Source: a phage
Reading direction: 5' to 3' (one strand)
DNA: 64,000 nucleotides
Sequence record: OZ470804.1
In this document: piece after piece, positions 3,936-44,700 of the stretch
How the letters are laid out: every line of letters begins with the position of its first letter
Position numbering within the stretch: the stretch's first letter is position 1
Position numbers and translations under genes: made by a program
Notes under the pieces: model-generated
What the model was told of the DNA's origin: nothing
Database searches by the model: none
What the model saw: only the letters and a program-made list of their open reading frames with translations

Positions 3936-4297
3936 AATGACCTCAAAGTTATATTAAATTTTGTATTACATTGAGTATAAAAATAAGCTATAACACCTGA
4001 CTTGTCAACAGATTTTATAGCTTATTTGGCAGATTTTTTATAAGGCTACTGCCATCCTTCCATACCGAACCGTGCCTAACCTGACCATGCCACACCTTAC
4101 AATACCAAACATTACTTAAAAACCCTCTTAGAAGACTCTTAAGTGATGTAATCGAATTTTAATGTAGCTCCGATTAACTACCCATACCTGACCAGACCTT
4201 GCCAAACCTTACCTCACCCAACTACACCGAACCTCATTAAAAGACCCTCTTAAAAGACCTTTTAAAAAGGAGCCTCCGAAGAGGCTACCTAGTCAAC
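3936..4297. repeat. structured intergenic leader, copy 1 (paralog of 5344-5772)
   Basis: shares modules GGCAGATTTTTTATAAGGCTACTGCCATCCTTCCATAC, TTTTAATGTAGCT-loop hairpin and C/A-rich G-poor tracts with the second copy. Confidence 0.7.
4262..4287 (-). terminator. intrinsic terminator (minus strand)
   Basis: hairpin AGCCTC-CGAA-GAGGCT with A-run on plus strand (T-run on minus) just downstream of ORF 4298-4738. Confidence 0.55.
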
Positions 4298-4738
4298 TTA
4301 GAAAGGTTTTCTACGTTGCTTGTTAATGTTAGCTTTCATAGCAGCTAAATGGTTTTGCTGTTCAATCAGTCGTGAACGTTCTTGATGACTAAGCGCCATA
4401 GTGTTCACATTCTCAATTGCTTGAGTGGCTTGCTTTAAAGCTCGACCAATCTTACCAGACATTTTGCGTTTTGCAATAGTTGCTTGATGCTTAGGTTCAA
4501 CCACACGATAACCAACACCCATTGAAGCAACCAGATAAATCTTCTCTTCTTTAAGAAGCTTTTCAATAAACTTCTCAAGTCGGTTTAGACGTGTAAGTGC
4601 ATAAGCCTTCATTTCATCTTCGTACTTAACAATGTCGCCTTGATAAGTTGGCTTCACAATACCTAAGAAGGTATCCATCTCAGAGTGTGATACAGTGTCA
4701 CCGTAACTAAACTTTGCTGCTAATGCTTTTGTATTCAT
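4298..4738 (-). CDS. hypothetical protein
   Basis: 146 aa ORF. Confidence 0.5.
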   Translation of the reverse strand: MNTKALAAKFSYGDTVSHSEMDTFLGIVKPTYQGDIVKYEDEMKAYALTRLNRLEKFIEKLLKEEKIYLVASMGVGYRVVEPKHQATIAKRKMSGKIGRALKQATQAIENVNTMALSHQERSRLIEQQNHLAAMKANINKQRRKPF

Positions 4739-4740
4739 AA

Positions 4741-5772
<1,032 letters not shown>

Positions 5773-5961
5773 TCAACAACTTTCTAATAAAGTTTTATGA
5801 AGATTTTGCTTAACGACCCGCCTCACATGCCTGTGCTCTTTCTTAATAAAGAGTGACCTCTTCTTGATAGAGCGCCTATTCTTGTAAGTGTTGCTAGGGT
5901 ACTTATCATGAACCGGACAACAGCCACCCGGATTTGTAAACTTGATAATCTCTCTTTTCAC
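5773..5961 (-). CDS. small basic hypothetical protein
   Basis: 62 aa ORF abutting ligase gene; highly basic, low complexity. Confidence 0.3.
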   Translation of the reverse strand: MKREIIKFTNPGGCCPVHDKYPSNTYKNRRSIKKRSLFIKKEHRHVRRVVKQNLHKTLLESC

Positions 5962-7100
5962 TATTCATAATCCCTAATAACTAGCCCAACAGGGAACTGT
6001 AAAGACCCCTTACGAGTCATCTTCTGGAACTGAACCGTTAAAGGCTTCCCGATAAACTCTTCAGGATGCTCAGCAAGATACTGTTTCTTCTCGTGTGTAG
6101 TTTTCCATGAAACATCTACAAAGACGTTAGGAAGAGTCTCTACAACGAACTTGCCATGACCACGCTTATCAGTCTTTACACCAGTCACTTTAAACTCTTC
6201 AGTGTGCATCTTCTTGTGCTTAATCAAGAAGTATGAACGGTGACAACACTCGTAGAAGGAGTCTTCAGAGATTGAGCGGTACATTGCACCTTCAAACTCA
6301 GCTTCAACCCACTTATCATGAGCTTCATCAAACTCTTCCCAAGAATTTACACGACGAGACTTAACAGGAACAACTTTACAGCCATCTCTAAAGTCATTCA
6401 ATGGTGAAGTCTCAATAATATCTCTACGCTCAGGCCACGTCTTAGTGCTGTCACAGATATCATACCAGTAAAACTTGAGTAAATGTCGGTCAGGATTGTC
6501 TTCATTTTTAATCATGGAGACAATATCTTCTAAATCCAACCCATGAGCATAGATTTCACCATCAAATTCATCAACGTCTTTATGGAGCCTCAACATTGCC
6601 ATAATGTCAGGTATTAGTTCAGTAGGAATTTTATAAATAGTGTTCTCACGAGAATATGCTGTAAATACACTGCCAATACTTAAGTGTCTTGAAATTCTAC
6701 AACGTACACCATCCAGTTTTGGTTGAGCATCAGCAGGGAACTTCAAATACTTTGCATGACTAACCTTTGCAGCATCATGAGCAAGCTGTACACCTACCTT
6801 CTCAGTATTCTGTGCAGACTCTTTTGTGTAAGCATAACCTTTACGGTCAACTTGCTTTTTATACTTAGCAGAAACTTCAAAGAGAGCTTGCTGTTCAGCA
6901 TTACGCTCATTCTTTTTACCGATGTTTTTAGGTTCTGCTGTATACTCTTCAAACATCATCTTGCCATTTTCTTTACCGTAGGTTGTAATAACTTTGTCAC
7001 CTACAGCGACACATGACCAGACGTTGAAAGAACCATCTTTATTTTGTTTGTACAGAATTGTCATTTTTAACCTCTGAGTGATACCAAGTGTAACAAGCAT
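5961..7100 (-). CDS. ATP-dependent DNA ligase
   Basis: motif I PKLDGVRC, motif III FDGEIYA, motif IV EGAMYRS, motif V LIKHKK in order; about 100 aa N-terminal extension before motif I. Confidence 0.8.
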   Translation of the reverse strand: MLVTLGITQRLKMTILYKQNKDGSFNVWSCVAVGDKVITTYGKENGKMMFEEYTAEPKNIGKKNERNAEQQALFEVSAKYKKQVDRKGYAYTKESAQNTEKVGVQLAHDAAKVSHAKYLKFPADAQPKLDGVRCRISRHLSIGSVFTAYSRENTIYKIPTELIPDIMAMLRLHKDVDEFDGEIYAHGLDLEDIVSMIKNEDNPDRHLLKFYWYDICDSTKTWPERRDIIETSPLNDFRDGCKVVPVKSRRVNSWEEFDEAHDKWVEAEFEGAMYRSISEDSFYECCHRSYFLIKHKKMHTEEFKVTGVKTDKRGHGKFVVETLPNVFVDVSWKTTHEKKQYLAEHPEEFIGKPLTVQFQKMTRKGSLQFPVGLVIRDYE

Positions 7101-7257
7101 TACATGCGTAAAGCTCTAAGTCATTTTTATCTGGTTTATGGAAACAGTTTGACCCACAACGACATCGGAATAGTTTACCATCAACACGAAGAATGAATGT
7201 TTCAAGCTCACCATCTTCTGTAAGAACTGCGTTCTTAAATTTATCTTCTACAGTCAT
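7039..7257 (-). CDS. zinc-finger protein (hypothetical)
   Basis: CRCGSNC..CNAC cysteine pairs; overlaps ligase 5' end so one of the two starts is probably shorter. Confidence 0.4.
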   Translation of the reverse strand: MTVEDKFKNAVLTEDGELETFILRVDGKLFRCRCGSNCFHKPDKNDLELYACNACYTWYHSEVKNDNSVQTK

Positions 7258-7460
7258 TTTCTCTTACCACCAATCTCTACGTCAATCACTTGAACATCAC
7301 CAGCAACATCAAACTTATGAATGATGCTTTCCACAGTGTAAGTCCAACCCTCGATGCGAACCAATTCACCTTCTCGTGGAACTATTGGGTTACGTTGGGC
7401 TACGGTTGTAGTGGAGTGAACAACATCATAACAATAGATATAGTTTACTAGGACTTCCAT
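7254..7460 (-). CDS. hypothetical protein
   Basis: ORF-track ORF 7254-7559 trimmed to internal Met to avoid overlap with lipoprotein gene. Confidence 0.35.
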   Translation of the reverse strand: MEVLVNYIYCYDVVHSTTTVAQRNPIVPREGELVRIEGWTYTVESIIHKFDVAGDVQVIDVEIGGKRK

Positions 7461-7894: not shown

Positions 7895-8122
7895 TCAGAG
7901 GTCAACGCTAATACGTTCACCCTTAAGGACTCCTGTACGGTCTCTTGCAATCTTACCGTCAACAATAAGGATATGCGCAGACTTTAAAGATTCACTATTA
8001 AAACCTTTTACGAACTTACTAGGCATCACCACAATAAGCATCTCTTGAATCAACTCTGGAGTGTAGCAATTATCGTGAAGTTGCTGAATAACGTCTGCAA
8101 GTGTCATTTTTGATGTCTCCAA
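7895..8122 (-). CDS. hypothetical protein
   Basis: 75 aa ORF. Confidence 0.45.
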   Translation of the reverse strand: METSKMTLADVIQQLHDNCYTPELIQEMLIVVMPSKFVKGFNSESLKSAHILIVDGKIARDRTGVLKGERISVDL

Positions 8123-8313
8123 TATTCAATATCAATAAGTTCTTGTGCAATGCTTTTCAGATTACCTTTCAAGAAAACCTTCTCAGAACCTGAAAGAGAT
8201 GAATTGTCAATTAACCTGTTCATTCTCTCAAACAACTTCTGCTTACGGTTCTTGATAGTTTCCTTTGAAGCACCTTTCATCATTGCTGCATGGGTTCTTC
8301 CACGGTGGCTCAT
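8104..8313 (-). CDS. hypothetical protein
   Basis: 69 aa ORF, basic. Confidence 0.4.
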   Translation of the reverse strand: MSHRGRTHAAMMKGASKETIKNRKQKLFERMNRLIDNSSLSGSEKVFLKGNLKSIAQELIDIEYWRHQK

Positions 8314-8364
8314 AAGCCCTCCTATATAAGATATAGTATAAGGTACTCTTCCATGAGAACCTTG

Positions 8365-8868
8365 TCAACTTAGTTTTGCAAACTCTCCGTGGAGTTTTAC
8401 AGCAGCTTCACAGTAAGCTTTATGGGCTTCTTCTGGTGTGTCAAATAAACCAAGTGATGTCCTTTTACCTCTGCATGTTATAGCTGCCCTCCACTTATTA
8501 CAGTCTTTAAAGTAATGTACACCCTTGTAACCTGATTTATTAGTCGTCTGCTTTATTCTATTTTGTGCATTTCCGTATTTATCAGTCTCCCTAAGATTAG
8601 AAATGTGATTATTACTTCTGTTACCATCAATGTGGTCTATCATCTTAGTGGGTTTGTAACCATGTTCGAACCACCAAACGAGGTGATGAATTTTTATTAC
8701 GACATCTTTGAATTTAAGTACTTTGTAACCGTAAGCATCAGCACCTCCTGCAATCTGCCCAGCTTTAGCTTGTCTATTCCTGTCATACTTGTTGTAGAAG
8801 ACCCCTTTGTCGGGGTCGTAAATAAAATTATCCTTGTAATCTTGAAGTGTTAGTGTACGGCGTACCAT
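8365..8868 (-). CDS. HNH homing endonuclease with AP2 DNA-binding domain
   Basis: HNH motif DHIDGNRSNNHISNLRE plus AP2-like SGYKGVHYF..WRAAI; sits immediately downstream of polymerase gene. Confidence 0.75.
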   Translation of the reverse strand: MVRRTLTLQDYKDNFIYDPDKGVFYNKYDRNRQAKAGQIAGGADAYGYKVLKFKDVVIKIHHLVWWFEHGYKPTKMIDHIDGNRSNNHISNLRETDKYGNAQNRIKQTTNKSGYKGVHYFKDCNKWRAAITCRGKRTSLGLFDTPEEAHKAYCEAAVKLHGEFAKLS

Positions 8869-11579
8869 GTCTTACCTACCTTACCAGTGCCTGTAACAAG
8901 CGTCTTACTCTTTAATCCAAGATTTTTTGATGCTTGACCATACATTCTATCAATAATTTCCTTAACATCAGGTACATCTTTGGTTGGAACCTCTAAAGAG
9001 ACCTCATCGTGGTAACTACAGACCCACCTAGCACCAATAGCGGGCTTCCTACCATTTAGAACTGTAAGCTTGCGCTCTGTTAACTCTCTGTTAGCCAAGT
9101 TAATACCCTCATTCTGCACCTGCGCCTCACTGCCCATAAGTGTGTAATTCAATAACTTATGTGGAGATTTACACCATAACCACGCTCCAGCAACTTTGAT
9201 ATAACCACCTTTGGCAATTGCAGAAGTTTTTCCGAAAACCTCTTCAAGTGCTTTCTTAGTTGCTTTGAAGTCTTCCTCTAACCTGTCCAGAAGCTTTTTA
9301 ATCTTAGGCAGACGCACAAAGTAAGTTTGTTTAGTCAATGCACCTTCTTCCGTAGATGATGCCTTGATAGTTTTTGCAAACTTCTCGTCTCCGGCTCCAA
9401 ATAACAGGGCGTAGATACCATTCTTAGCCTTCTTACGGCCTTTTGTAATCTCGTGAAGAAGTTCCTCATCCTGTGTCTCCCTACAAAGAATAATATCCTC
9501 TTCTTTGTTAAGACCAAAGTAAATACTGTTCAGTGTATGCGCATCAGTCCCTGTATAGACTTCATAGAGGTCATTCTCAGCATCATAACGAAGATACTTG
9601 TCAGTTTCTGGGTTAAGATACTTATCAAGATGCTTACAATAGTATCTACCATCCTCTTGCTTAGTGAACTCTACTGACTCTTTGCCCTCAGTGACCGCTT
9701 TAGTGAAGTCTTCATCACCCATAAAGTTACAAAGAAGAACTAGCTGGGCTGAGTTTTGGTCTACGGAGATGATGTCTGTACCATCTTCACAAGTCCACAC
9801 TTCCCTCATAGGCGCTCCATAGACAGCAGCACCAGACGGTACGTTTACAATGCCATATTGTGTCATACGTCCAGTTGAAGTACCAAACACCATTGCACCA
9901 GCACTAAGGCGACCATCTGGACGAATCTGGTTCAACCAACCTTTTTCATCATCCTTTGAGTTCTCAATAGTTCTGCGTCGGTGCATCAAAGTATAGTACT
10001 TAGCAATCTTCTGCCCAAGCTCACCTTCAATCGTATCATAAGATGATTCAGTAAGTTTTGGTGAAGTACGGATTAAGCAAGGTTCAAGCAAATCTGTGTA
10101 TTTCTTCACAGACCAGTTATGCTCGATGTACTGTACACCTTCGTGTTCAACATAACTCAAACCACACCGCTCAACCATTTCCTGCCACTTAGGATGCTTT
10201 GTAATCATCTTTTTATTGTCTTTGAAACGACAAACTTTGACAGGGCGACCATCTGAGTCTTTCTTGTAATTCCAGTCATCTGGAATCCAACCAACTGATT
10301 TCAAGTAGTCTTTAACAACTGCTACCTGAGTCATGCGAGAAACTTCGAACTCAATTGGTGTATATGGTGCATCAATCAAACCTGTGTAGCGACTTGACTC
10401 AAGTTCAAAGTGGTTAACAACATGACTGTTATAGTACTTCACAGTTTTGACTGTTTTTACTGGCTTCCAGTCTTTGCATTTCTTACCAATCTTTGCGTTC
10501 AACTCATTGCAAATTGCACGAGCATCCTTCATTGCTACAAAACCTTCCTTGTACTCTTCACCAGTTACAGAGTTGGTTGGTGTATAGCAATTTCTCTTTT
10601 CAATGTTAAAAATCTTTGTAGTTGGCTTACCAAATGGCTTGATTTCGTATGTCTGCATCTCACCGTTACGCACCTGTTGACGATACTTTGTCTTAGGATA
10701 CTTGGTAATCCTCTTCAGTCCATCTGCATGACCAAATGTTTCAACATACTCATTCCAAGCTTTTGCAAACTCTTCTCCAGTGACTTTACCTTTGGTCTTA
10801 ATAGTTGGAGGAAGGTGTGGTTCAACCTCTGAAGCAAGCTCATTAGTCAACTTGTCAAGTTCCTTTACATGGAACTCCATAAGCTCTTTATCAGCTTTCC
10901 AACCATTGATAGCTTGTTGACTCATCCAGAAAGATGTTTCTTTAGCTCGCATGTAGGTTTCATAAGTGTCTATGCCACACTTCTTAAGCTTGAGATACTC
11001 ATTATCAAGTGCCCGTTTAGTTTTGGCGTTAATACGGATATCTTCTACAACACGAGTGAAGATTTCTGCATTCCACACACCCCAATGTTCAATCTCTGGT
11101 TTACGAACACCAACACGAGCACCCCATGCAGCCAAGCCATGAGCACCTTTATAACCCTTTGGAGTTGGTCTATCCATCCACTGAACACGAGACTGGATAA
11201 GAGAATCCTGAAAGAAATTACTCCACGGCTTACACTTTGGATTATCAAAGTTCCATAAATCCGGTGCAATGTGATTGAAAACCCACCAGTCATAACCTAG
11301 ACCATTATGAATGCAAAGACGTTTTGCCTTTAACGCAAACTCAATACCTTCACGTAAGCCACCCTTAATGTACTTGGTATACTTGTGACCGAGGATAGGC
11401 TCATCTGTAAAGACCCATACAGGTGGCTCTTCATCGTCAGATTTATAGTCTGCGAAAGCCATTACGTGCACTTTAGTGAACTCAAGGAGTAAACCATCAG
11501 TTTCTGTATCACCAACTAAATGTAAGTTTTTAAAATCTACGTTTTCCATTTTTACTCCCTCTAAAATCATTAACCTCAT
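8850..11579 (-). CDS. DNA polymerase, family A
   Basis: exonuclease motif LVGDTETDG, motif B-like KNGIYALLFGAG, motif C YHDEVSLEV; 909 aa. Confidence 0.9.
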   Translation of the reverse strand: MRLMILEGVKMENVDFKNLHLVGDTETDGLLLEFTKVHVMAFADYKSDDEEPPVWVFTDEPILGHKYTKYIKGGLREGIEFALKAKRLCIHNGLGYDWWVFNHIAPDLWNFDNPKCKPWSNFFQDSLIQSRVQWMDRPTPKGYKGAHGLAAWGARVGVRKPEIEHWGVWNAEIFTRVVEDIRINAKTKRALDNEYLKLKKCGIDTYETYMRAKETSFWMSQQAINGWKADKELMEFHVKELDKLTNELASEVEPHLPPTIKTKGKVTGEEFAKAWNEYVETFGHADGLKRITKYPKTKYRQQVRNGEMQTYEIKPFGKPTTKIFNIEKRNCYTPTNSVTGEEYKEGFVAMKDARAICNELNAKIGKKCKDWKPVKTVKTVKYYNSHVVNHFELESSRYTGLIDAPYTPIEFEVSRMTQVAVVKDYLKSVGWIPDDWNYKKDSDGRPVKVCRFKDNKKMITKHPKWQEMVERCGLSYVEHEGVQYIEHNWSVKKYTDLLEPCLIRTSPKLTESSYDTIEGELGQKIAKYYTLMHRRRTIENSKDDEKGWLNQIRPDGRLSAGAMVFGTSTGRMTQYGIVNVPSGAAVYGAPMREVWTCEDGTDIISVDQNSAQLVLLCNFMGDEDFTKAVTEGKESVEFTKQEDGRYYCKHLDKYLNPETDKYLRYDAENDLYEVYTGTDAHTLNSIYFGLNKEEDIILCRETQDEELLHEITKGRKKAKNGIYALLFGAGDEKFAKTIKASSTEEGALTKQTYFVRLPKIKKLLDRLEEDFKATKKALEEVFGKTSAIAKGGYIKVAGAWLWCKSPHKLLNYTLMGSEAQVQNEGINLANRELTERKLTVLNGRKPAIGARWVCSYHDEVSLEVPTKDVPDVKEIIDRMYGQASKNLGLKSKTLVTGTGKVGKTWYAVH

Positions 11580-11609
11580 ACATTACTGCAAAAAATTATA
11601 AAAAGCAAG

Positions 11610-11638
11610 TTGACAATGCACTTGACAAGGTGTTAATC
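11610..11638 (+). promoter_or_regulatory. putative promoter with tandem TTGACA boxes
   Basis: AAAAAGCAAGTTGACAATGCACTTGACAAGGTGTTAATC; A-rich upstream element. Confidence 0.4.
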
Positions 11639-11806
11639 TTTGCGAAGTGGGTTTTTACTTAAAAGGTTACTTAACAGTTTAACTATACAGATACTTTAAA
11701 AGTCTTAAAAGATTATTTAATAGCTTTTAAAAAGCTTTAAAGTATAACGTATAGAATACGTTAAGATAAAAGATTAAAACTTAATAGTTACTTAAAAGAG
11801 GTTTAC

Positions 11807-12229
11807 ATGCAGAAAATGTTTGTTCACCCAGACATAGCTGACTTTGTTAGAGCTTTGCAGAAGTTGGAAGAACTTGACATTGCTGCTCAACGGGAATATG
11901 CTCACCATCACAGGAGAATGGTTGATATACAACATGAAATAGAGTTGTCTGAAAACTATGAAGATGACTTAAAATGCTCTGTATTTGAGCATATGAAAGA
12001 TGTTGCTACAGCGAGACGTAAAGCTAAAGACACAGTTGCTTTACTAGATTCTCTTAAAAAGAGGTTGCAAAGTGGTACAGACCTGTGTAATCTAGCGTCA
12101 CTGATTAACGATGTTGAAACTTCTTGGGATAGGCACTATTATCCACGTTCTGAAAAGACACTTGACTTTTCTTCATCAGAAAACTTAAAATGTTCTAGAA
12201 AGAAACTTAACCAACTGAGAGAGAAATAA
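11807..12229 (+). CDS. hypothetical protein
   Basis: 140 aa ORF with AAAAGAGG RBS. Confidence 0.55.
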   Translation: MQKMFVHPDIADFVRALQKLEELDIAAQREYAHHHRRMVDIQHEIELSENYEDDLKCSVFEHMKDVATARRKAKDTVALLDSLKKRLQSGTDLCNLASLINDVETSWDRHYYPRSEKTLDFSSSENLKCSRKKLNQLREK

Positions 12230-12230
12230 T

Positions 12231-13031
12231 ATGAATACTACTGTAGACCAGATGCTTGAAGAAAAAGGTATTGACGAAGCTTTCTTAATCAATGCCGTAG
12301 AAAGCATGGCTATGATTCTTCGTGGAAACAACTACACAGAACAGTTTATGCCTGCAAGCTATAACCTGCCTAAAGACAAGTCTGATAACGGTGCTTTTGC
12401 AGAACAGGTTAATATGATGTTGACAGACACTACACTTGCTCTAGCATCTATTGCGGTTGGTGTTGATGCACTTGCTGAGTTCATTTTTTATGAAATGCAA
12501 AAGAATGACTATATCAGGATGTCAGACGAAGATAAGGAACTGTTACTGACTAAGGATACTGATTTCATTATTGATACGCTTATCTCATCAACAAGTGCTG
12601 TTATGGCTGTTCTTGAGAAGCGTATGGAAGAGAAACTTTCACGATATGAAAAGCTTGATTGGGGCGTAGAAGAATTAAACCCACGAATCAAAGAGATTAT
12701 CCAGCAAACTAAAGAGTCTTTAGAAGAAGCTGTTGAAAATGACACTGTAGCTGATATAGAACCTCTTCAGGTGAAAGTTGCACTGATGATTCCAGCTATT
12801 TCTACAATGATGAATATCGTTGCACTAATCCAACTTTCACAGATGATGGGTGTGAGTATGGAGTTCATTGAGGAGATGACTGGTGGTGTCAGTATGCAAG
12901 CAATCAATGATGTTTTGGTGAACATTGGTGCTTCAATCATTGAAGAGAAACTACGCATCAACTTCGGTGATGATTTTGTGAAGCAACTCTCAGCTATGGC
13001 TGAAAAAGAGTCTGCCGAGCAACTGCACTAA
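12231..13031 (+). CDS. hypothetical protein
   Basis: 266 aa ORF, start overlaps stop of previous gene. Confidence 0.55.
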   Translation: MNTTVDQMLEEKGIDEAFLINAVESMAMILRGNNYTEQFMPASYNLPKDKSDNGAFAEQVNMMLTDTTLALASIAVGVDALAEFIFYEMQKNDYIRMSDEDKELLLTKDTDFIIDTLISSTSAVMAVLEKRMEEKLSRYEKLDWGVEELNPRIKEIIQQTKESLEEAVENDTVADIEPLQVKVALMIPAISTMMNIVALIQLSQMMGVSMEFIEEMTGGVSMQAINDVLVNIGASIIEEKLRINFGDDFVKQLSAMAEKESAEQLH

Positions 13032-13049
13032 GTCTTTATAAATCTTACA

Positions 13050-13074
13050 AGCCTCCTTAGTTGGGGGCTTTTTA
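13050..13074 (+). terminator. intrinsic terminator
   Basis: AGCCTCC..GGGGGCT hairpin followed by TTTTT. Confidence 0.5.
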
Positions 13075-13092
13075 GTAATTAAGGGAGATAAA

Positions 13093-13836
13093 ATGAGTAA
13101 TATTATTGCATTTACTGGAAAGGCACGCTCTGGAAAAGACACCTCATGTTCTATTGTGAAGAACATCTTAGAGGATGAGTACGGCTACAATGTTGCAGTA
13201 ATGGCCTATGCAGACAACCTTAAGCTATCTGCATCAAAGATATTTGACCTGACTTGGAATGACCTGTATGGTGAAACTAAAGAGACTCCACAGGTTTTTG
13301 ACTTATCATATCCTGAACTGATGTTAAAAGTTACAGAAGCTATGGAGTTCACTTTCAAAGGTGAGCGTTACCATATGGATTTTAAGCTTATGTCAGAGTT
13401 AACCGGACGATTAATCATGGAACTTAAGAAGGTGGCTAAACCGACTCTATTAACACGTCTGGGATTTAGCAAGAAGTATAAATTCTCATCAAGGCAAATT
13501 CAACAGATTTGGGGCACTGAAGTTATCCGTAAAGTTATGGGTGACAAGTTCTGGGCTAAAGACCTCGAAAAACGAATGGTAAATTTCTTTGACGTTTGCT
13601 CACTTAGAAATCAAGAAGGTGTTGTTTTAATCAGTGATTTAAGATTTGACTCTGAAGCTGAGTGGCTGAGTAGATTTGCACACCAAACTATTGAAGTAAA
13701 AAGAGACAATGTGGACAAAGTTTCATCACACGTTTCAGAAAATGGGATTTCTACAAAATATGAGCGTGACATTATTCATAATAATGGTACTCTTGAAGAC
13801 CTTGAAAGCAAGCTAAGAGCTATCCTGAAGATTTAA
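13093..13836 (+). CDS. deoxynucleoside monophosphate kinase
   Basis: N-terminal P-loop FTGKARSGKDT and C-terminal NNGTLEDLESKL resemble T4 gene 1 dNMP kinase. Confidence 0.7.
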   Translation: MSNIIAFTGKARSGKDTSCSIVKNILEDEYGYNVAVMAYADNLKLSASKIFDLTWNDLYGETKETPQVFDLSYPELMLKVTEAMEFTFKGERYHMDFKLMSELTGRLIMELKKVAKPTLLTRLGFSKKYKFSSRQIQQIWGTEVIRKVMGDKFWAKDLEKRMVNFFDVCSLRNQEGVVLISDLRFDSEAEWLSRFAHQTIEVKRDNVDKVSSHVSENGISTKYERDIIHNNGTLEDLESKLRAILKI

Positions 13837-13844
13837 AAGAGAGA

Positions 13845-14045
13845 ATGAAGATGAGAGTAAAAGATAATTTCAAAGTTATTGACCATCGTTTAGTGGAACT
13901 CTCATCTCTTTCCAATGAGGTAATGATTGAACGTCTTAAGAGAGTTGAATCACGAAGGAAAGAGATTGCAGACGAAATTCATGAACTGGACAAGATTGAA
14001 AATGGATTGAAGGCAGAACTACAACGAAGAGGTGCTAATGTCTAA
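13845..14045 (+). CDS. hypothetical coiled-coil protein
   Basis: 66 aa ORF overlapping primase start. Confidence 0.4.
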   Translation: MKMRVKDNFKVIDHRLVELSSLSNEVMIERLKRVESRRKEIADEIHELDKIENGLKAELQRRGANV

Positions 14046-16023
14046 AGGTCGTAAATTGAAAGAGGCTGGTCAGTTTATTGGTCATTGTGCATGTCCACGT
14101 TGTGGTTCATCAGATGCTGGTTCAATCTACCATCATGACGATGATTCTTATTCGATGACTTGCTTTAGTTGTAATAAAGGTTTCCCAGAGTGGGATTTTG
14201 ATAAAGGACAAATCGTGAGCACTTATTCTACTGGTTCAGACAATAAAAACCGTACTTTCCGTGGAATGGATTTAGACGATGTAAAAGAAAACCTAGAAGC
14301 AATGGACTTGAAAGACAGGAAGATTCCTGCAAAAGTCCTTGAACGTTTAGGTATCAAGGTTGACATTGATGGTGACGGTGAAATTGACGCACATTTCTAT
14401 CCAACTTACAAACGTAATGAAGATGGTAAGCTAGAGCACGTCGGTTATCGTGTACGTCACCGTTACCCAGAAGACCACCCAAAAGAACATCTACGCGGTA
14501 AGTTAAAAGACTTTTCAGGTGGTGTTGGGGACATTAAAGGTGAACTGGCAATGTTCGGTTCATGGATTGCTCCAGAAGGTGGTAACCGTCTATTCATTTG
14601 GGAAGGTGAGATGGAATGTGCCACAGCAATCTACATGACTTCTCTGGCGATTAAAGATAAGTCTCGTCGTAAGAATTACTGTCACGTATCTGTTCCATCA
14701 GGTGCAAACATTAAGTCTATCAAAGACAACTATCAGTACATTACATCATTTGATGAGATTTACTTGTGCTTTGATAACGATGAAGCAGGTGCTAAAGCTA
14801 CCAAAGAAGCTGCTGGTATCCTACCTATTGAGAAGGTTCGTTTATTCCAGTATCCAGAAGGTGTAAAAGACCTTAACGAATGGTGGACAAAGTTCTATAA
14901 AGAGAAAGACACAGTTCTGGAAGGATTTAAACAGCGTATCTACAACGCACCTCGTTACTGCCCTGCTGGTATCAAGAACTTCGCAGATGGTTTTGAGGCA
15001 ATGAAGAATCGTGGTCAGATTCCATTGATTCCTTTCCCAGAATCTTTCGGAGATTTGAACAGGTTGACTTATGGTGGTTATGGTTTAGGTGAGATTACAA
15101 CTCTGGCAGCACCATCTTCAGTAGGTAAATCAGCGTACACCCGTGAAATGATTTACACTGCTTGGAAGGAAACTGATTATAATATTGGTGTAATTCCTGT
15201 AGAAGATACCTATGAAGAGTTGATGGAGATGCTCTGTGCAATTCATCTAAGCAAGCAGATTTCTGAGATTCCTTATGATGAACGTGATTGGGATGAATTG
15301 AAGGAAGCACACGCAGAACTATCTAAAGGTCGTCGTATCCATATCGTTGACCATCAAGGGGCAATTGACCAAGATAACCTGCTGGAATTTGTTGACTATC
15401 TTGTTAACAGTTTAGACTGTAAGATTATTATTCTTGACCCTATTACGTTGGCTCTGTCACGTTCAGATACGGATGAAGAGGAAGTTTTATCTGAGCTATT
15501 GCGTCGTTGCAAACGCTACCAGTATGCACAGGTAAACGTATGTCACGTTCGTAAGAGTGCAGGTGGTCAGAAAGCTAACTCTGAAGGTGGAGATATCTCT
15601 GAAGAGGATATTAAGGGTTCTGGTGCATACTTCCAGATTTCCATGAACAACATTCTGTTAATGCGTAACAAGGTTGACCCAGACCCTGTTAAGAAAAACT
15701 TGACAAAAATCAAGTTAACTAAGTGTCGTCGTCATGGTAAGTCAACAGGTATTGCTGGTCATACTTGGTACAATCCAGATACAGGACGTCTTATCAAAGC
15801 TTCTGGATGTGGTGTTGACATTGATGGTGCAGCAGAAAATATTCGTCAACAGTTTGGTATTGGTGAAGCTGAAGACCATTACGATGACTCTTTACCTCAT
15901 TATGAGGATGAAGTGTTTGACCGTGAGACTGGTGAAGTCTATACTGAAGAACAGCGTCAAAGTTCAACAATCCCACCTGTATTAAGCGAGGATGCAGATG
16001 ACTGCCCGTTCGAAACTGAGTGA
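14032..16023 (+). CDS. bifunctional DNA primase/helicase (T7 gp4-like)
   Basis: N-terminal zinc ribbon CACPRCG..CFSCNKGF, DnaB-type Walker A AAPSSVGKSAYT, Walker B IIILDP. Confidence 0.85.
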   Translation: MLMSKGRKLKEAGQFIGHCACPRCGSSDAGSIYHHDDDSYSMTCFSCNKGFPEWDFDKGQIVSTYSTGSDNKNRTFRGMDLDDVKENLEAMDLKDRKIPAKVLERLGIKVDIDGDGEIDAHFYPTYKRNEDGKLEHVGYRVRHRYPEDHPKEHLRGKLKDFSGGVGDIKGELAMFGSWIAPEGGNRLFIWEGEMECATAIYMTSLAIKDKSRRKNYCHVSVPSGANIKSIKDNYQYITSFDEIYLCFDNDEAGAKATKEAAGILPIEKVRLFQYPEGVKDLNEWWTKFYKEKDTVLEGFKQRIYNAPRYCPAGIKNFADGFEAMKNRGQIPLIPFPESFGDLNRLTYGGYGLGEITTLAAPSSVGKSAYTREMIYTAWKETDYNIGVIPVEDTYEELMEMLCAIHLSKQISEIPYDERDWDELKEAHAELSKGRRIHIVDHQGAIDQDNLLEFVDYLVNSLDCKIIILDPITLALSRSDTDEEEVLSELLRRCKRYQYAQVNVCHVRKSAGGQKANSEGGDISEEDIKGSGAYFQISMNNILLMRNKVDPDPVKKNLTKIKLTKCRRHGKSTGIAGHTWYNPDTGRLIKASGCGVDIDGAAENIRQQFGIGEAEDHYDDSLPHYEDEVFDRETGEVYTEEQRQSSTIPPVLSEDADDCPFETE

Positions 16024-16276
16024 TAGTTATAAAAGAGAGGGGTTTATACCCTTCTTTGAAGAAAAAAGTTTAAATAAATTTCAGGAAGAGTGTTTGACAA
16101 AGATTGATAGGTTCTATAGAATGCTCCTCATGAAATGCGATGGGGAGGTTGCTATAAAAGAAGATTCCTACCAAAGCACGATTACAGTCATCATTACACT
16201 GCCTCAGCATAATATTAGTTGGCTGTTTATAATTAAAGAAAATGTGTTTGAATATCAAGTATATCGGAGAATATCA

Positions 16277-16425
16277 TGAAGCACTCTAAAGCATTTGAAA
16301 AAGTTTTTGGGGATTCCTTAAAAGCCACTGCTGGAAAACCAGCAAAATACTATGAAGAAAAACGTGTAAGAACTGGAAAAACTGCACGTAAAGCAGCTTC
16401 TAAAGATAAGCACAACTTCCAGTAA
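16277..16425 (+). CDS. small basic protein (not in ORF track, 49 aa)
   Basis: ATG at 16277, MKHSKAFEKVFGDSLKATAGKPAKYYEEKRVRTGKTARKAASKDKHNFQ, stop 16423-16425. Confidence 0.3.
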
Positions 16426-16432
16426 TTAGTAT

Positions 16433-16461
16433 TTGACAATAGAGTATCAACAAACTAGAAT
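16433..16461 (+). promoter_or_regulatory. sigma70-type promoter
   Basis: TTGACA-17 bp-TAGAAT upstream of SSB-like gene. Confidence 0.55.
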
Positions 16462-16497
16462 TGGTACTCTTCATAAATTGAGATAGAGGTTTAAATA

Positions 16498-17355
16498 ATG
16501 TCTAAAGTTGTTAAAATGAAAGCTCCGGTAGAGAAGTACAACGGTACTGAACGTCAAACTCTGCGTTACCTGCTGAAAGATGTCTGGTTTTATTACCTGA
16601 ACACTTCACCACGTCCGGGAAAAGGTAAGTCTATTGATAAGAAATTCCCAGGCAAAGACTGTAACTACAGCGTATCAATTCTGGCAGAAGACGGTAACAA
16701 ACTGTTTAAAGAGTTTACTAAGTCTAAGAAGAACCCAGAAGGTTGGGATAAAGTTACTACTGAAGCAGTTGATGCAGATGACTTCGAAGAGAAGTTTGGT
16801 TGTAAACCACCTTTTGAAGCAGACACTTACTACATCTTGAAAGTAAGTCGTGCAGCAGCTTATAAAGATGGTGCTGTGTGGACAGCTAAACAGTCATTCC
16901 CTGTAATGCTGATTGAAGAAGTAAATGGTAAGCGTGTAGCTGTTAAACAGCCGATGAAGAAAATCAAAGCTCAAGCATCTGACAAACATGAAGATGACAA
17001 GAACTATGATGTAATTCATCCAGATATTGCAGTTGGTAACGGTTCTTTTGGTAGTGTGATTCTTTCTACTCACTTCTACACTTTTGAGAACAATGTTCTG
17101 ACAAAACCTATTCAGGAACAGTTTATCATCGATACTCTTGTACCTTACACTGGTGGTAATGGTGCTAATGGTGAACCTGAACTGGATGAAGATGAACTGG
17201 CTATGCTTGGTCTTGATGGTGTTGAAGATAACGGTGAAATCACTGAAGAAGACGCAACAGACCACAAACCTTCGAATAATTCTGATGATGGTGACGATGA
17301 AGACTTGCCAGACCCAGATGACGAAGAAGATGAAGACTTCGATACAGAAGACTAA
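16498..17355 (+). CDS. single-stranded DNA-binding protein (putative)
   Basis: strongly acidic C-terminal tail DDGDDEDLPDPDDEEDEDFDTED; position between helicase and flap endonuclease. Confidence 0.5.
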   Translation: MSKVVKMKAPVEKYNGTERQTLRYLLKDVWFYYLNTSPRPGKGKSIDKKFPGKDCNYSVSILAEDGNKLFKEFTKSKKNPEGWDKVTTEAVDADDFEEKFGCKPPFEADTYYILKVSRAAAYKDGAVWTAKQSFPVMLIEEVNGKRVAVKQPMKKIKAQASDKHEDDKNYDVIHPDIAVGNGSFGSVILSTHFYTFENNVLTKPIQEQFIIDTLVPYTGGNGANGEPELDEDELAMLGLDGVEDNGEITEEDATDHKPSNNSDDGDDEDLPDPDDEEDEDFDTED

Positions 17356-17374
17356 TCTCTAAAAGTTACTTTAA

Positions 17375-17402
17375 AGCCCTGTACTTAGTATGGGGCTTTT
17401 TC
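17375..17402 (+). terminator. intrinsic terminator
   Basis: AGCCC..GGGCT hairpin followed by TTTTT. Confidence 0.5.
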
Positions 17403-17417
17403 ATATGGAGAGCCATA

Positions 17418-18464
17418 ATGGAGAAGTACACATTAACAAAACTTCCCGATTCAGTTACACATGTCTTTATTGACTCTGATAGCATTGCCTATAAAGGTGC
17501 TTGTGTAGTTGAGAAAGCAAAATATAAATATGTCAATAAACTCACAGCAGAAGAATCTGAACCATTTGATAATGCAAAAGATGCTGCAAGATGGTTAGCA
17601 GACCAGAGAATCCTTGTAGAAGAGCTTGGACTGACATTTGATGAAGATGAATGGGAAAGACAGACTTGGAAAGAAGCTAAGAGTGAAAAAGAAGCTATCA
17701 TGGCTACTCAGCAGGTTCTTCAGGAATGGCTTAAGGTTGTTGGTAAAGAAAGAACTTGGGTAGGTTATTTAACAGAGAAAGGTGTGCATAAACATAAAGA
17801 CATTAAAGGTCTTGAGCACCAATATCAAGGTAACCGCAAAGATGCTGTCACACCAACACACTTAGTTGCTTGTCGTGAGTATCTTCTGTCAAGGCCAGAG
17901 TTCAAATTGATTCTTGATGGATTTGAAGCTGACTCTATCGTTATTGCTAAAGCTGAAAAGATGGGTAAAAAGGCTGCCTTAATGAGTATTGATAAAGACC
18001 TTCGCCAAGCTGAAGGGACTTACTGCATTGATATGACCTATGAAAAGTCGCCTTTGATTTTCATTGCTGATAACAACGTTGGTGAAATTTGGGATTGTCC
18101 AATAAAATCGACACCAAAAGCTAAGAAGACAGTTGGGGTAGGTTTTAAATTTCTTTGTTACCAAGCTGTGGCTGGTGATAATGCGGATAATTATTTTGGT
18201 TTAAAGGGTGTTGGTAAGGTTACTATAATGAAAGCCCTTGAAGGTAAAACCACCTACAAAGAGTGTCTTGATGCAATTTATGAGCTTTATGCTAAGAAAG
18301 AGTCATACACTTATGTCTCGTGGGATGGTCAAACAATTACCAGAACACCTTTAGAGTTAATGCAGCAACACTTTTTCTTAGCTTATCAGGAAAGAAACAA
18401 GAAAGACGATTTCACTTTTGATAAGTATGGGTGGACACCAAATGTTAACTCAACAAACTCTTAA
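17418..18464 (+). CDS. 5'-3' exonuclease / flap endonuclease
   Basis: helix-3-turn-helix motif GLKGVGKVTIMKALEG and acidic metal-binding residues. Confidence 0.75.
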   Translation: MEKYTLTKLPDSVTHVFIDSDSIAYKGACVVEKAKYKYVNKLTAEESEPFDNAKDAARWLADQRILVEELGLTFDEDEWERQTWKEAKSEKEAIMATQQVLQEWLKVVGKERTWVGYLTEKGVHKHKDIKGLEHQYQGNRKDAVTPTHLVACREYLLSRPEFKLILDGFEADSIVIAKAEKMGKKAALMSIDKDLRQAEGTYCIDMTYEKSPLIFIADNNVGEIWDCPIKSTPKAKKTVGVGFKFLCYQAVAGDNADNYFGLKGVGKVTIMKALEGKTTYKECLDAIYELYAKKESYTYVSWDGQTITRTPLELMQQHFFLAYQERNKKDDFTFDKYGWTPNVNSTNS

Positions 18465-18942
18465 AGAATACCTGCACTATGACCCCGAAACAGGGGTCTT
18501 TACTTGGTTAGTTGGTAGAAAAGGTAAGGCCAAAGCTGGCTCAGTAGCAGGTCTTAAACATCATAGTGGTTATATTTATATAAAACTCTTCGGAAAAAGA
18601 TATGCAGCACACAGACTGGCATTCTTGTATATGAAAGGATACCTCCCAAAATTTGTTGACCACAAGAATGGTATCAGGCACGACAACTGGTTCGACAATT
18701 TGAGAGAGTGTAGCAGGTCAGACAACAACTGCAATGCAGTCAAAAGAAAAGATAATAAGTCTGGTGTGAAGGGTGTATATTACCACAAGCAAAGGGGTAG
18801 GTGGGCTGCACAAGTCAAGCATAATAAAGTATGCTACCATCTAGGTTTATTTGACTCTATCACTGAGGCTGAATCAGTTGTCAAAAAGAAAAGAGAAGAA
18901 CTCCATAGAGAGTTTACAAATCACGGAGAAGCTCATGAATGA
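18442..18942 (+). CDS. HNH homing endonuclease with AP2 domain
   Basis: FVDHKNGIRHDNWFDNLRE and SGVKGVYYHKQRGRWAAQV; paralog of 8365-8868. Confidence 0.7.
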   Translation: MLTQQTLKEYLHYDPETGVFTWLVGRKGKAKAGSVAGLKHHSGYIYIKLFGKRYAAHRLAFLYMKGYLPKFVDHKNGIRHDNWFDNLRECSRSDNNCNAVKRKDNKSGVKGVYYHKQRGRWAAQVKHNKVCYHLGLFDSITEAESVVKKKREELHREFTNHGEAHE

Positions 18943-19439
18943 TTAAAGTTAAAGGTTTTGGGAGTTGTCCAACTTATGGTCACTGGATTTCACTATGTGG
19001 TGAAGTTGACCCAGCAAAGCACTTTGGTTTTGTCTACCTAGTGTACTGCAAAAAGACTGGACAGTACTATTTGGGTAAGAAACAGCTTAACAGTGTGACA
19101 AAAAGAAAAGTTGCCGGTAAGACTCGGAAGAAGGTAGTCACTAAGGAGAGTGATTGGATGACTTATGAGACTTCTTCTGAGTATATTAAAAAAGATATTG
19201 AGAGCTTTGGAAAAGAATTTTTTGACTTTTACATTATTCAGACCTACTACACAAAAGGTGGCCTAGTCTATGGTGAAGCAAACCTTCAACATAAATTCGA
19301 TGTAATGACAAAAAGGATTGACTCGAAGCTCAGACTCTTCTACAATGCCAATATTGCAGCAATTAAGTTTATTACTAAAGAAACTTATGAAGATGCTGAA
19401 AAAAGAATCCATAAGGTAATGAAAGCAAATTGTGCTTGA
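18939..19439 (+). CDS. hypothetical protein
   Basis: 166 aa ORF. Confidence 0.5.
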   Translation: MIKVKGFGSCPTYGHWISLCGEVDPAKHFGFVYLVYCKKTGQYYLGKKQLNSVTKRKVAGKTRKKVVTKESDWMTYETSSEYIKKDIESFGKEFFDFYIIQTYYTKGGLVYGEANLQHKFDVMTKRIDSKLRLFYNANIAAIKFITKETYEDAEKRIHKVMKANCA

Positions 19440-24980: not shown

Positions 24981-25179
24981 ACGCCTTTGGGAAGGCTTGG
25001 TTGTTGATGCACCAGCCATTGTGATTGGTATGCTTATTGTTAACCTATTTACTGATTTTGAACAAGGTTCATTGTTTGGAGCCATGTTACTATGGGTTAT
25101 CTTTGAAATATTAGAGATACAGCTAGGCATCACTGAAAAACTAAGAAAACTCGTTTCAAAGTTTTCTAAAAAGATTTAA
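24973..25179 (+). CDS. small membrane protein
   Basis: two hydrophobic segments. Confidence 0.4.
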   Translation: MLKRLWEGLVVDAPAIVIGMLIVNLFTDFEQGSLFGAMLLWVIFEILEIQLGITEKLRKLVSKFSKKI

Positions 25180-25186
25180 AATGAAA

Positions 25187-25208
25187 GGGTCTCTTCGGAG
25201 ACCTTTTT
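25187..25208 (+). terminator. intrinsic terminator
   Basis: GGTCTC-TTCG-GAGACC hairpin followed by TTTTT. Confidence 0.7.
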
Positions 25209-25227
25209 AGCATGTAAAGGGGCAATA

Positions 25228-28154: not shown

Positions 28155-28640
28155 ATGAATTACATGGAGATTCGACCATTTGACACAGCTAATGGTGAAG
28201 GGGTTCGTGTAAGCCTCTTCGTAGCTGGCTGTAAACATCACTGTGAAGGCTGCTTTAACAGGGAGTCTTGGAAGTTTAATGCTGGTAAAGAGTTTACTTA
28301 TGCAAATCTCTACGGCATCATTAAGTTAATGGATGATGAGGCCATCAGTGGGTTGTCAATACTTGGTGGAGAGCCTCTTGATGATAGAAACATTCAAGAG
28401 GTCACTAACATATGTAAACGTATTAAAACTGTTTACCCAGAAAAATCTATCTGGCTCTGGACAGGTTTTCAGTTACACGAAAAAATCCACCTAGAGGTGA
28501 TGAAATATGTTGACGTGGTGATTGATGGTAAGTATGATTCTTCTAAACCAACAGTTAAACCATATCGTGGTTCTGATAACCAAAACCTCTGGAGAAAAGA
28601 GTATGGGTGGCAAGGTGACTGCCAATGGCGAGCAGAGTAG
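28155..28640 (+). CDS. nrdG: anaerobic ribonucleotide reductase activating enzyme (radical SAM)
   Basis: CKHHCEGCFN radical-SAM cysteine motif; 161 aa. Confidence 0.8.
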   Translation: MNYMEIRPFDTANGEGVRVSLFVAGCKHHCEGCFNRESWKFNAGKEFTYANLYGIIKLMDDEAISGLSILGGEPLDDRNIQEVTNICKRIKTVYPEKSIWLWTGFQLHEKIHLEVMKYVDVVIDGKYDSSKPTVKPYRGSDNQNLWRKEYGWQGDCQWRAE

Positions 28641-28872
28641 TATAGCAGGGCTATACATATACAACAGTGAGTTATTAGATGAGTGGACTAAGTTTACATC
28701 TGATAACCACGGGAAGGATGGTTTAGAATCTCTTGCTTGTATAGTTGGAGCAGGTGTATTTCTAGTCTTAGATGAAAAGTTTGGAGAGTACTACAAAACA
28801 AACCTCTTTTGTGGAATGTGGAGAGTCGGTATTACTCCAGAAGAGTTAATCAACTTCTGTATAAAAGTTTGA
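28603..28872 (+). CDS. hypothetical protein
   Basis: ORF-track ORF trimmed to Met after GGAG RBS; overlaps nrdG 3' end. Confidence 0.3.
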   Translation: MGGKVTANGEQSSIAGLYIYNSELLDEWTKFTSDNHGKDGLESLACIVGAGVFLVLDEKFGEYYKTNLFCGMWRVGITPEELINFCIKV

Positions 28873-39776: not shown

Positions 39777-40100
39777 ATGCAGATTAATGGAAGAGACTTT
39801 GTAGCCGTTTACTACGAGAAAGGTAAAGAAGTTGGCGTAGCACAAGTATCTTATGGCAATGGTAAGTGGCTATATGGAACAATCGCAGTAGTAGGCACAA
39901 GAAGTGATACAAAAACTTTTAAAGATTGTGTTGAACTTCTTGAAGAATCCATTCAGAACCATTGGTGTCTGATATGGATGACTGACAACGAAGTGATAGA
40001 ACGTTTCAAAAAGATTGACATCAACATTGACAGTATTGAGCATGTTGATTTATATGAGCTAACTGAGAAGGTAAACTATGAAAGCTCTAGAGGTAATTGA
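39777..40100 (+). CDS. hypothetical protein
   Basis: 107 aa ORF. Confidence 0.45.
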   Translation: MQINGRDFVAVYYEKGKEVGVAQVSYGNGKWLYGTIAVVGTRSDTKTFKDCVELLEESIQNHWCLIWMTDNEVIERFKKIDINIDSIEHVDLYELTEKVNYESSRGN

Positions 40101-40305
40101 TAAAGACACTGGAGAAGTTACATCAGCATGTGTTTTCGTTAGTAACGACACAGTGATACCATTTTACAATCTCGATAGTTTTAGTTTTACAGGGACAACT
40201 CCAGAGGAATACTTTGAAGACCTCACCTTTGCCAGAATCTCTATAGATACATTCTATAAATGCTTCTATGATGAAGGTAAAGAATTACGAGAAACCGAAC
40301 TATAA
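40078..40305 (+). CDS. hypothetical protein
   Basis: 75 aa ORF. Confidence 0.4.
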   Translation: MKALEVIDKDTGEVTSACVFVSNDTVIPFYNLDSFSFTGTTPEEYFEDLTFARISIDTFYKCFYDEGKELRETEL

Positions 40306-40317
40306 GGTGTATATTAT

Positions 40318-42493: not shown

Positions 42494-42579
42494 AGTACTT
42501 TACAAGGGGCTTATAGTTCGATAAAGTAAGCCCCAGATAAAGAGCTTTACCACTCAATCCTAAATTGGAGAACTTAAAA
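42493..42579 (+). promoter_or_regulatory. leader cassette type A, copy 2
   Basis: same cassette with compensatory stem variant GGGGCTTAT..TAAGCCCC. Confidence 0.65.
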
Positions 42580-44502: not shown

Positions 44503-44700
44503 ATGGCTATTATTAACGGTTTAACCATTGAAACTACACACATCAAAGATATCAAAGTTGGCGATATAGTCCTTTCCCACGGCGTAGAAAAAACTGTCAC
44601 TGCAAAGGATATCAAAGAGGATTCTTTCATGGGTAGAACTCTCTTCGGTGATTCTTATTGCTTAGGTTATCTTGCAGTTTTAAAAGTTGTCAAAAATTAA
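44503..44700 (+). CDS. small hypothetical protein (array gene 8)
   Basis: 65 aa ORF. Confidence 0.5.
   Translation: MAIINGLTIETTHIKDIKVGDIVLSHGVEKTVTAKDIKEDSFMGRTLFGDSYCLGYLAVLKVVKN

Follow-up and report, generated by a model that had tools for sequence, protein, structure and literature searches.

The 64,000-nucleotide (nt) stretch of phage DNA recorded as OZ470804.1, hereafter the window, carries four small endonuclease genes of the HNH type, and they raise the question of whether such genes are mobile elements settled at fixed sites or nucleases that the phage keeps for its own benefit. Two of them adjoin replication genes: HEG1 (8365-8868, minus strand; HEG, homing endonuclease gene) lies at the 3' end of the DNA polymerase gene, and HEG2 (18442-18942, plus strand) at the 3' end of the gene for the 5'-3' exonuclease (flap endonuclease). 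The other two, HNH3 (59572-59919) and HNH4 (60509-60961), both on the plus strand, are interspersed among the 22 tRNA genes called in the window by ARAGORN. A sequence-only reading had listed these four open reading frames (ORFs), all of which were found where it had put them, two of them within the tRNA cluster, and had taken them for free-standing homing endonucleases. Comparison with related genomes makes it very likely that the four are indeed free-standing HEGs, compact selfish cassettes at fixed positions beside or inside conserved genes. Sporadic presence, precise empty-site junctions (4-6 nt), intact HNH motifs and divergent alleles all support this reading. The variation in presence and absence for which relatives were to be searched is there, each gene occurring in 10-43 of about 260 related GenBank genomes.

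By megablast of the two regions concerned, the window belongs to a Felix O1-like myovirus of the genus Felixounavirus. About 260 phage records match at 90-98% identity, nearly all of them Felix O1-like myoviruses of Escherichia, Salmonella, Shigella and Citrobacter, and the gene order is collinear with that of the Felix O1 reference genome. A T5-like identity, suggested by the gene content, was ruled out by the 95-98% identity of the window to Felixounavirus genomes. For presence counts in GenBank, a record was counted if at least 80% of the gene was covered, the denominator being the approximately 260 Felixounavirus records. Individual sites were compared in IMG/VR loci, of which 28 cover the exonuclease site, 9 the polymerase site and 21 the tRNA cluster.

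The HNH and AP2 content ascribed to the two genes beside the replication genes is borne out by Pfam, PHROG and Protein Data Bank (PDB) matches. The domain order in both is N-terminal HNH_3 and C-terminal AP2, so that "HNH-AP2" is a more accurate label than the earlier "AP2-HNH". In the HEG1 protein of 167 residues, HNH_3 spans residues 60-98 (E=9.6e-12, 44.8 bits, cut-off 24.8) and AP2 residues 112-161 (E=1e-9, 39 bits, cut-off 33.3). HEG2, which is alignable to HEG1 throughout, has HNH_3 above the Pfam cut-off (E=1e-12) and AP2 at E=2.6e-7, with 31.3 bits against the 33.3-bit cut-off. Both proteins match phrog_99, "HNH endonuclease" (E=1e-62 for HEG1 and 3e-75 for HEG2). Among solved structures, the nuclease part of HEG1 matches I-HmuI best (PDB 1U3E; residues 56-109, E=3e-4), and plant AP2/ERF structures match the C-terminal part of HEG1. 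HEG1 and HEG2 are homologous, with 37% identity over 161 residues (E=1e-28). Their description as paralogous is loose for what is one mobile family at different sites with several alleles per site. HNH3 and HNH4 are zinc-finger HNH endonuclease genes whose likeness to each other is confined to the HNH core. HNH3 has an intact CxxC...HH...N...CxxCH motif, matches a PHROG HNH family at E=2e-41 and scores 17 bits with Pfam HNH (cut-off 21.4); HNH4 scores 23.2 bits with the same model and matches phrog_10822 at E=4e-66. All four genes are reading frames separate from those of their neighbours and do not lie within an intron or intein, and the cassettes are trimmed to little more than one ORF each. 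Rfam gave no match to intron RNA in the tRNA region of the window, and tblastn turned up no additional copies elsewhere in the window, only a meaningless 26-bit match at 25047-25232.

AP2 is a transcription-factor domain in plants, as the PDB matches recall, and HEG1 and HEG2 might on this ground be mainly sequence-specific DNA-binding regulators of neighbouring genes with a vestigial HNH part. The AP2 domain is also mentioned repeatedly in a 2026 preprint on anti-CRISPRs of phages that bind DNA and silence cas transcription. Such a regulatory role is scarcely credible, because D78, H79, N87, N91, L92, R93 and N103, which form the D-H...N...NLR...N motif of the nuclease, are invariant in six divergent HNH-AP2 alleles and the genes are dispensable in most relatives. 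Furthermore, no evidence of a conserved operator was found.

The overlap of HEG1 and HEG2 with the ends of their neighbours, part of the earlier description, is confirmed. The ATG of HEG1 (8868-8866) lies 19 nt inside the polymerase ORF, whose stop is at 8852-8850, and the ATG of HEG2 lies 23 nt inside the exonuclease ORF, whose stop is at 18462-18464. At the polymerase site, three of the nine loci carry the 167-residue allele of the window, three a 177-residue allele and two a 170-residue allele, and the remaining one, EC6-like, is empty. The window allele is full-length in 18 GenBank records and 99.4% identical in amino acid sequence to Felix O1 ORF95. In the empty site, TTAGTA alone stands between the polymerase stop and a conserved TTGACAAGGTGCTCA... 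element. This intergenic element (TTGACAAGGTNCTCA...TATAGGAGG; 8316-8368, minus strand), of which the window has a single copy, bounds every cassette at the polymerase site on the right-hand side, and its TTGACA contains the TGA stop of the endonuclease gene in all occupied genomes, HEG1 included. A scan for sigma-70 promoters and terminators made no such call for the element. The alleles share their last ~23 residues (EEAHKAYCEAAIKLHGEFAKLS) and the corresponding ~70-190 nt. Just downstream of HEG1, a 69-residue ORF (8104-8313, minus strand) varies in presence; it is absent from loci L005, L007, L008 and L009, where the next gene directly follows the conserved element.

The flank on the other side of HEG1 differs with the allele. 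The last ~450 nt of the polymerase gene (8850-9300, minus strand), of which the final 19 nt (8850-8868) overlap the start of HEG1, form a haplotype tract tied to the HEG1 allele. Where the site is empty or holds a different allele, most of the polymerase gene is 95-99% identical to that of the window; in those genomes identity is only ~75% at 9300-9101, and 9100-8901 is ~62% identical or unalignable. Near this tract, at 9400-9415 (minus strand), polymerase motif B (...AKNGIYA|LLFGAGDEKF...) contains a group I intron site that is unoccupied in the window, where the polymerase ORF is continuous. A group I intron is present in motif B of relatives L009 (4332-4615) and L008 (3195-4001), with an Rfam score of 62.1 bits (cut-off 50), and the intron of L008 holds an Endonuclease_7-type ORF. 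Neither the window nor Felix O1 has this intron, and the 2010 Felix O1 genome paper reported no introns (PMC3185647).

The exonuclease site is empty in 16 of the 28 loci and holds an HNH-AP2 gene in the other 12. Three allele classes occur there, with ~95-98%, 57% and 54-56% amino acid identity to HEG2 of the window. The window allele is full-length in 43 GenBank records and ~95% (94.8%) identical to Felix O1 ORF106. The empty site reads ...TGGGAGCC-GTGT-ATGAATGAAGATTAAAGG, with the exonuclease stop inside the start of the GIY-YIG gene that comes next. In occupied genomes the HEG2 cassette (~18440-18934) puts ~495 nt in place of the 4 central nt of the empty site, gives the exonuclease a new C-terminus, PNVNSTNS instead of the PCMNED of empty genomes, and re-establishes an ATGA overlap with the start of the GIY-YIG gene. 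All alleles at this site have their first ~22 residues and their extreme C-terminus in common. All of them open with MLTQQ, which places the start of HEG2 at the ATG at 18442, as had been proposed, and rules out the TTG ORF 18418-18942 as the gene.

The neighbours of HEG2 also carry a divergent tract linked to the cassette. Upstream of ~17900, empty and HEG2-bearing genomes are 91-93% identical and empty-site genomes are ~88% identical among themselves, so that the HEG2-bearing genomes fall within empty-site diversity. Along the final ~600 nt of the exonuclease gene, the identity between empty and occupied genomes is 85, 83, 80 and 75%, compared with 84-89% among empty-site genomes; the tract linked to HEG2 spans 17900-18439 (plus strand) of the window. 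In the first ~150 nt of the GIY-YIG gene, the corresponding values are 82.5% and 87.5%. One locus with an empty exonuclease site, L031, shows a haplotype switch ~25 nt from the site.

The alleles at both HNH-AP2 sites are 37-57% identical, and their middles only 35-57%. Because the alleles combine site-specific termini with divergent middles, the cassette ends behave as part of the site. Shared ends are expected if alleles replace one another by recombination in those ends.

Within the tRNA cluster, the flanks of the empty HNH3 and HNH4 sites are joined within a few nt. HNH3 is present in 28 GenBank records and in 2 of the 21 IMG/VR loci, one copy being cut by the contig end, and is 92% identical in amino acid sequence to Felix O1 ORF45. 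Junction alignment places its cassette at ~59562-59917, inserted in AATTT^AGTTAG. The empty HNH3 site consists of a tRNA(UCU)-like gene joined to AGTTAGCAG. The HNH3 gene starts at the ATG at 59572, with GGAG at 59563-59566, and not at the GTG of the ORF 59521-59919, the upstream part of which is the tRNA-like RNA. A promoter-like site, TTGACA-17-TATAGT, lies upstream of HNH3 at 59241-59269.

HNH4 is full-length in 10 GenBank records, is present in 1 of the 21 loci and has no counterpart in Felix O1. Its insertion is associated with an exchange of a tRNA gene. Most relatives have at this place a 78-nt tRNA-Leu(UAG) gene opening with GGGAGATTGACGG, and the window and L042 keep only its first 11 nt. 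This remnant (GGGAGATTGAC; 60496-60506, plus strand), recognized by alignment with empty-site genomes, has its GGGAG 8 nt before the HNH4 ATG, where the ribosome-binding site would be. The two ends of the HNH4 insert carry an 8-nt repeat: the HNH4 stop lies within GATTTAAT (60955-62), which repeats GGTTTAAT (60488-95) upstream of the tRNA. A complete 77-nt tRNA-Leu(UAG) allele (60963-61039, plus strand; ARAGORN, Rfam) begins 1 nt beyond the HNH4 stop and differs greatly from the 78-nt allele that most relatives carry. Most simply, the HNH4 cassette would have entered the 78-nt tRNA-Leu gene in the region of the D arm and would now be linked to a replacement allele. Such an allele beside HNH4 would explain the immunity of the resident genome.

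HNH3 is likewise found next to an unusual RNA gene, and only there. An 82-nt tRNA(UCU)-like RNA without a proper D arm is encoded at 59476-59557 (plus strand); the HNH3 cassette begins 4 nt past its CCA, and the HNH3 ORF follows 14 nt after the RNA. Neither ARAGORN nor Rfam with default filters calls this RNA. With lax filters only, it reaches 31.2 bits with the Rfam tRNA model (RF00005, cut-off 29), in an alignment in which the D arm is cut to 4 nt and ~20 nt are inserted in the variable region. The fold is supported by covariation: among ten diverse copies, the acceptor, anticodon and T stems are paired in 99.5% of cells, 9 of the 20 pairs are changed on both sides, and none of 500 shuffles reached the observed covariation. 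The loop CUUCUAA and two single-stranded blocks are invariant. The RNA was found in 263 phage records, 252 of them with near full-length copies, always in tRNA clusters and almost never annotated. Its carriers include Felixounavirus, Justusliebigvirus (phi92), Vequintavirinae, Asteriusvirus jumbo phages, T5-like Klebsiella phages and Kolesnikvirus, and a Streptomyces phage gives a weaker match. In about half of Felixounavirus, a canonical tRNA-Arg(UCU) replaces it at the same position. A 3-bp helix CUC (11-13)/GAG (40-42) may also enclose the anticodon arm, with a single compensatory case, CGC/GCG in Streptomyces phage BoomerJR.

Other identities for this RNA were considered and rejected. Rfam tmRNA matches are far below threshold, which speaks against a tmRNA, and against an alanine-accepting mimic it counts that G3.U70 is G-C in 4 of 10 homologues. 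A "tRNA-TERM" call in the phage 7t3 record was not reproduced by ARAGORN in mitochondrial mode. An HNH endonuclease is the next gene after the RNA in three unrelated phage groups, of a different family in each, and seven other phages have no HNH gene next to it. The 3' flank of the tRNA(UCU)-like gene is thus a repeatedly used HEG landing site and not part of a cassette. The idea that the RNA and HNH3 form one mobile unit was therefore discarded: most carriers of the RNA lack an adjacent HNH gene, and the others have one of a different family.

Together, the two tRNA-cluster sites invite a bolder proposal, namely that HEGs drive the swapping of isoacceptor tRNA alleles, each cassette bringing a cleavage-resistant substitute, and that the D-arm-less tRNA(UCU)-like RNA is a functional and undescribed family. 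As a joint claim this is tentative, and we would sooner expect at least one half of it to fail. The replacement of tRNA alleles and the widespread unannotated tRNA-like RNA may interest studies of phage tRNAs and of the evasion of host anticodon nucleases.

Several other features of the tRNA cluster were noted. The genes for tRNA-Asp(GUC), a second tRNA-Met(CAU) and tRNA-Arg(ACG), present in most relatives, are absent from the window (58643-59230, 61618-61638). The "tRNA-Lys(UUU)" called at 59076-59148 is 73 nt long, has its anticodon at an unusual position and directly abuts tRNA-Ile; it may have arisen by a deletion across the missing tRNA-Met. Two non-coding stretches between tRNA genes, 59920-60152 (233 nt) and 60243-60508 (266 nt), both on the plus strand, are 91-100% identical across the genus, and the end of the former (~60060-60140) shows tRNA-like acceptor and T-arm features ending in CCA where no tRNA was called.

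How the homing reading accounts for these observations can be set out as a series of steps, which would apply to the four genes alike. In a mixed infection, the enzyme would nick or cut the cassette-free allele near the insertion point, and repair by recombination from the cassette-bearing genome would copy the cassette together with flanking markers. The resident genome would be protected by flanks unlike the target, that is, by a divergent 3' end of the polymerase or exonuclease gene or by a substitute tRNA allele. HEG1 and HEG2 are probably translated by coupling to the polymerase and exonuclease, respectively, because each starts within the upstream ORF and lacks its own promoter signal. 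Consistent with such co-conversion, flanking haplotypes of 150-600 nt are linked to the cassettes in the polymerase, exonuclease and GIY-YIG genes, and an allele substitution accompanies HNH4, all of these associations being correlational.

Decay is the usual fate of HEGs after fixation, and it can be seen at the exonuclease site, where the HEG2 copy of L012 is frameshifted by a 1-nt deletion and the gene is annotated as two pieces in GenBank record H116. All four genes might accordingly be inactive relics that no longer cut and hitch-hike with their flanks. This is quite improbable for the window copies, which are full-length with all catalytic motif residues. The ratio of nonsynonymous to synonymous polymorphism (pN/pS) within the allele is 0.06 for HEG1 and 0.21 for HEG2, compared with 0.04 for the exonuclease gene, and shows the HEG1 and HEG2 alleles of the window to be under purifying selection. 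Phage ECML-1 has an HNH4 copy 100% identical to that of the window, and the copies of four other phages, two of them Salmonella phages, are 95-96% identical, which suggests recent spread. The coexistence of intact, decaying and absent copies in one genus represents the usual stages of the homing endonuclease life cycle.

The pN/pS of HEG1, as low as that of the exonuclease gene, could also mean that the nucleases are kept because they benefit the phage by excluding the markers of co-infecting relatives, by attacking satellites or the host genome, or by serving replication or recombination. HEGs stand at both ends of the replication module, HEG domains have been discussed in phage-satellite conflict (PMC10448857), and the GIY-YIG gene next to HEG2 is now a conserved core gene, so that domestication of a nuclease appears to have occurred in this lineage. 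However, most relatives lack each of the four genes, and none of them is therefore needed for growth; that several alleles can stand in for one another and that some copies are frameshifted is more in keeping with selfish turnover. Marker exclusion, moreover, is the homing mechanism seen from the side of the phage and not a fully separate model. A benefit to the phage is thus an unlikely explanation of the four genes, if the most serious rival to homing.

Several observations weigh against the interpretation of the four genes as homing endonucleases. The AP2 score of HEG2 and the HNH score of HNH3 fall below the curated Pfam cut-offs. Genomes that lack HNH4 commonly have the 77-nt tRNA-Leu allele too, so that it is not strictly part of the cassette. 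The nearby intron site may have contributed as much as HEG1 to the divergent 3' tract of the polymerase gene. The genus is a mosaic overall, with comparable spikes of divergence, for example at 16100-16299, 6500-6700 and 7100-7300, where there is no endonuclease gene, and the evidence that the flanking tracts give for homing is correlational. Relatives without the insertions were to reveal the target sites; they allowed the insertion points to be mapped to within 4-6 nt, and a target sequence for the four endonucleases could not be derived from them. Cutting, nicking and homing are putative activities of these proteins.

The same spikes bear on the claim that the genes mark recombination hot spots. 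Breakpoints do coincide with both HNH-AP2 sites, and this part of the claim stands. Because similar spikes occur away from endonuclease genes, the claim is consistent with the data and not statistically established. One of the mosaic patches, 6500-6700, lies in the DNA ligase gene (5961-7100, minus strand); it is 72-73% identical to the window in six of the eight relatives with sequence there and 90-92% identical in the other two, its flanks are 94-98% identical, and no endonuclease gene is nearby.

The gene that follows HEG2 was absent from the sequence-only reading. It encodes a SegE-type GIY-YIG protein (18939-19439, plus strand; Pfam PF19835, E=9e-27, 94 bits against a cut-off of 25), and its ATG overlaps the HEG2 stop as ATGA, from which translational coupling to HEG2 is predicted. 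A mobile GIY-YIG homing endonuclease of the Seg type would be expected to be distributed sporadically. In contrast, 262 records, among them Erwinia and Hafnia phages from other Ounavirinae genera, cover at least 80% of this gene, and it is complete in 27 of the 28 loci, the exception being L035 (EC6-like), which matches the C-terminal half only. Its pN/pS is 0.10 at a pS of 0.45. The gene thus behaves as a core gene and not as a mobile element, and the polymorphic HEG2 site falls exactly at its start codon. It is often labelled "NAD synthetase" in GenBank records. No relative of the protein was found in the PDB, and no obvious DNA-binding domain either.

Elsewhere in the window, seven segments have no blastn match in Felix O1 and represent accessory or replaced regions: 4149-5678, which includes a 200-residue ORF (4741-5343), 5787-5961, 28640-28862, 40085-40317, 42113-42836, 44518-45954 and 49186-49596.

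The phenomenon itself is already known: the annotation of the Felix O1 reference genome includes three of the four genes, and HEGs bracketing replication genes were published in 2023. What is added here is a site-level map together with natural empty-site genomes. The polymerase site is empty in EC6-like genomes, the exonuclease site in UAB_Phi87-like genomes, and the HNH3 and HNH4 sites in most of the genus. Such genomes could be used as substrates in cleavage assays and as partners in homing crosses. The map also shows the 3' ends of the polymerase and exonuclease genes to be unreliable phylogenetic markers in Felixounavirus.

The closest known system is Felix O1 itself, in which Whichard et al. 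(2010) described six homologues of HNH homing endonucleases (PMC3185647). ORF95 (NP_944955), ORF106 (NP_944978) and ORF45 (NP_944866), each annotated as "HNH endonuclease", correspond to HEG1, HEG2 and HNH3 and occupy the same positions, with the polymerase, the exonuclease, the "NAD synthetase" (the GIY-YIG gene) and the tRNA cluster as common neighbours. ORF44, ORF47 and ORF128 have no counterpart in the window, just as HNH4 has none in Felix O1. ORF44 is flanked by tRNA-Lys and tRNA-Ile, ORF47 by tRNA-Gly and tRNA-Thr, and ORF128, which is the third HNH-AP2 gene of Felix O1, by prs and nadV; the window has an empty site at each of these places. The number of HEGs is known to differ between Felixounavirus genomes (PMC8300805). 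The 2010 paper mapped neither empty sites nor alleles, whereas both are mapped here.

AP2-HNH endonucleases of Felix 01, RB49, Trichodesmium and Tetrahymena have been quoted in the plant AP2/ERF literature (PMC4237383), and HEGs combining HNH and AP2, the "IPA-HNH" genes of Vibrio phage ICP1 and others, were described by Barth et al. (2023; PMC10448857). According to these authors, such HEGs often lie beside the DNA polymerase gene, and HEGs bracket essential gene blocks and stand at boundaries of genetic exchange; cognate HEGs are unstable, and those at one position can be divergent homologues. By description, the ICP1 genes resemble HEG1 and HEG2 in their N-terminal HNH and C-terminal AP2 domains, their position beside the polymerase, the bracketing and the divergent cognates. 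However, the ICP1 proteins have no Pfam HNH_3 score (PMC10448857), whereas HEG1 and HEG2 score with HNH_3.

I-HmuI shares with HEG1 the HNH_3 nuclease and the association with a phage DNA polymerase gene, in its case the polymerase intron of Bacillus phage SPO1. It is intron-encoded, nicks one strand and has a different DNA-binding region. HEG1 and HEG2 are, in contrast, free-standing and carry AP2, and the similarity is limited to ~55 residues.

HNH3 and HNH4 also have counterparts by position. The F-Tfl endonucleases of phage T5 are HNH nicking enzymes of the phage tRNA gene region, and the tRNA gene region of phage T4 encodes the GIY-YIG enzyme SegB (cited as ref. 16 in PMC10448857). Like HNH3 and HNH4, SegB and F-Tfl are encoded by free-standing genes among phage tRNA genes, and in their case the tRNA region is inherited preferentially. 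By type, HNH3 and HNH4 are zinc-finger HNH proteins (PF01844), whereas SegB belongs to the GIY-YIG type.

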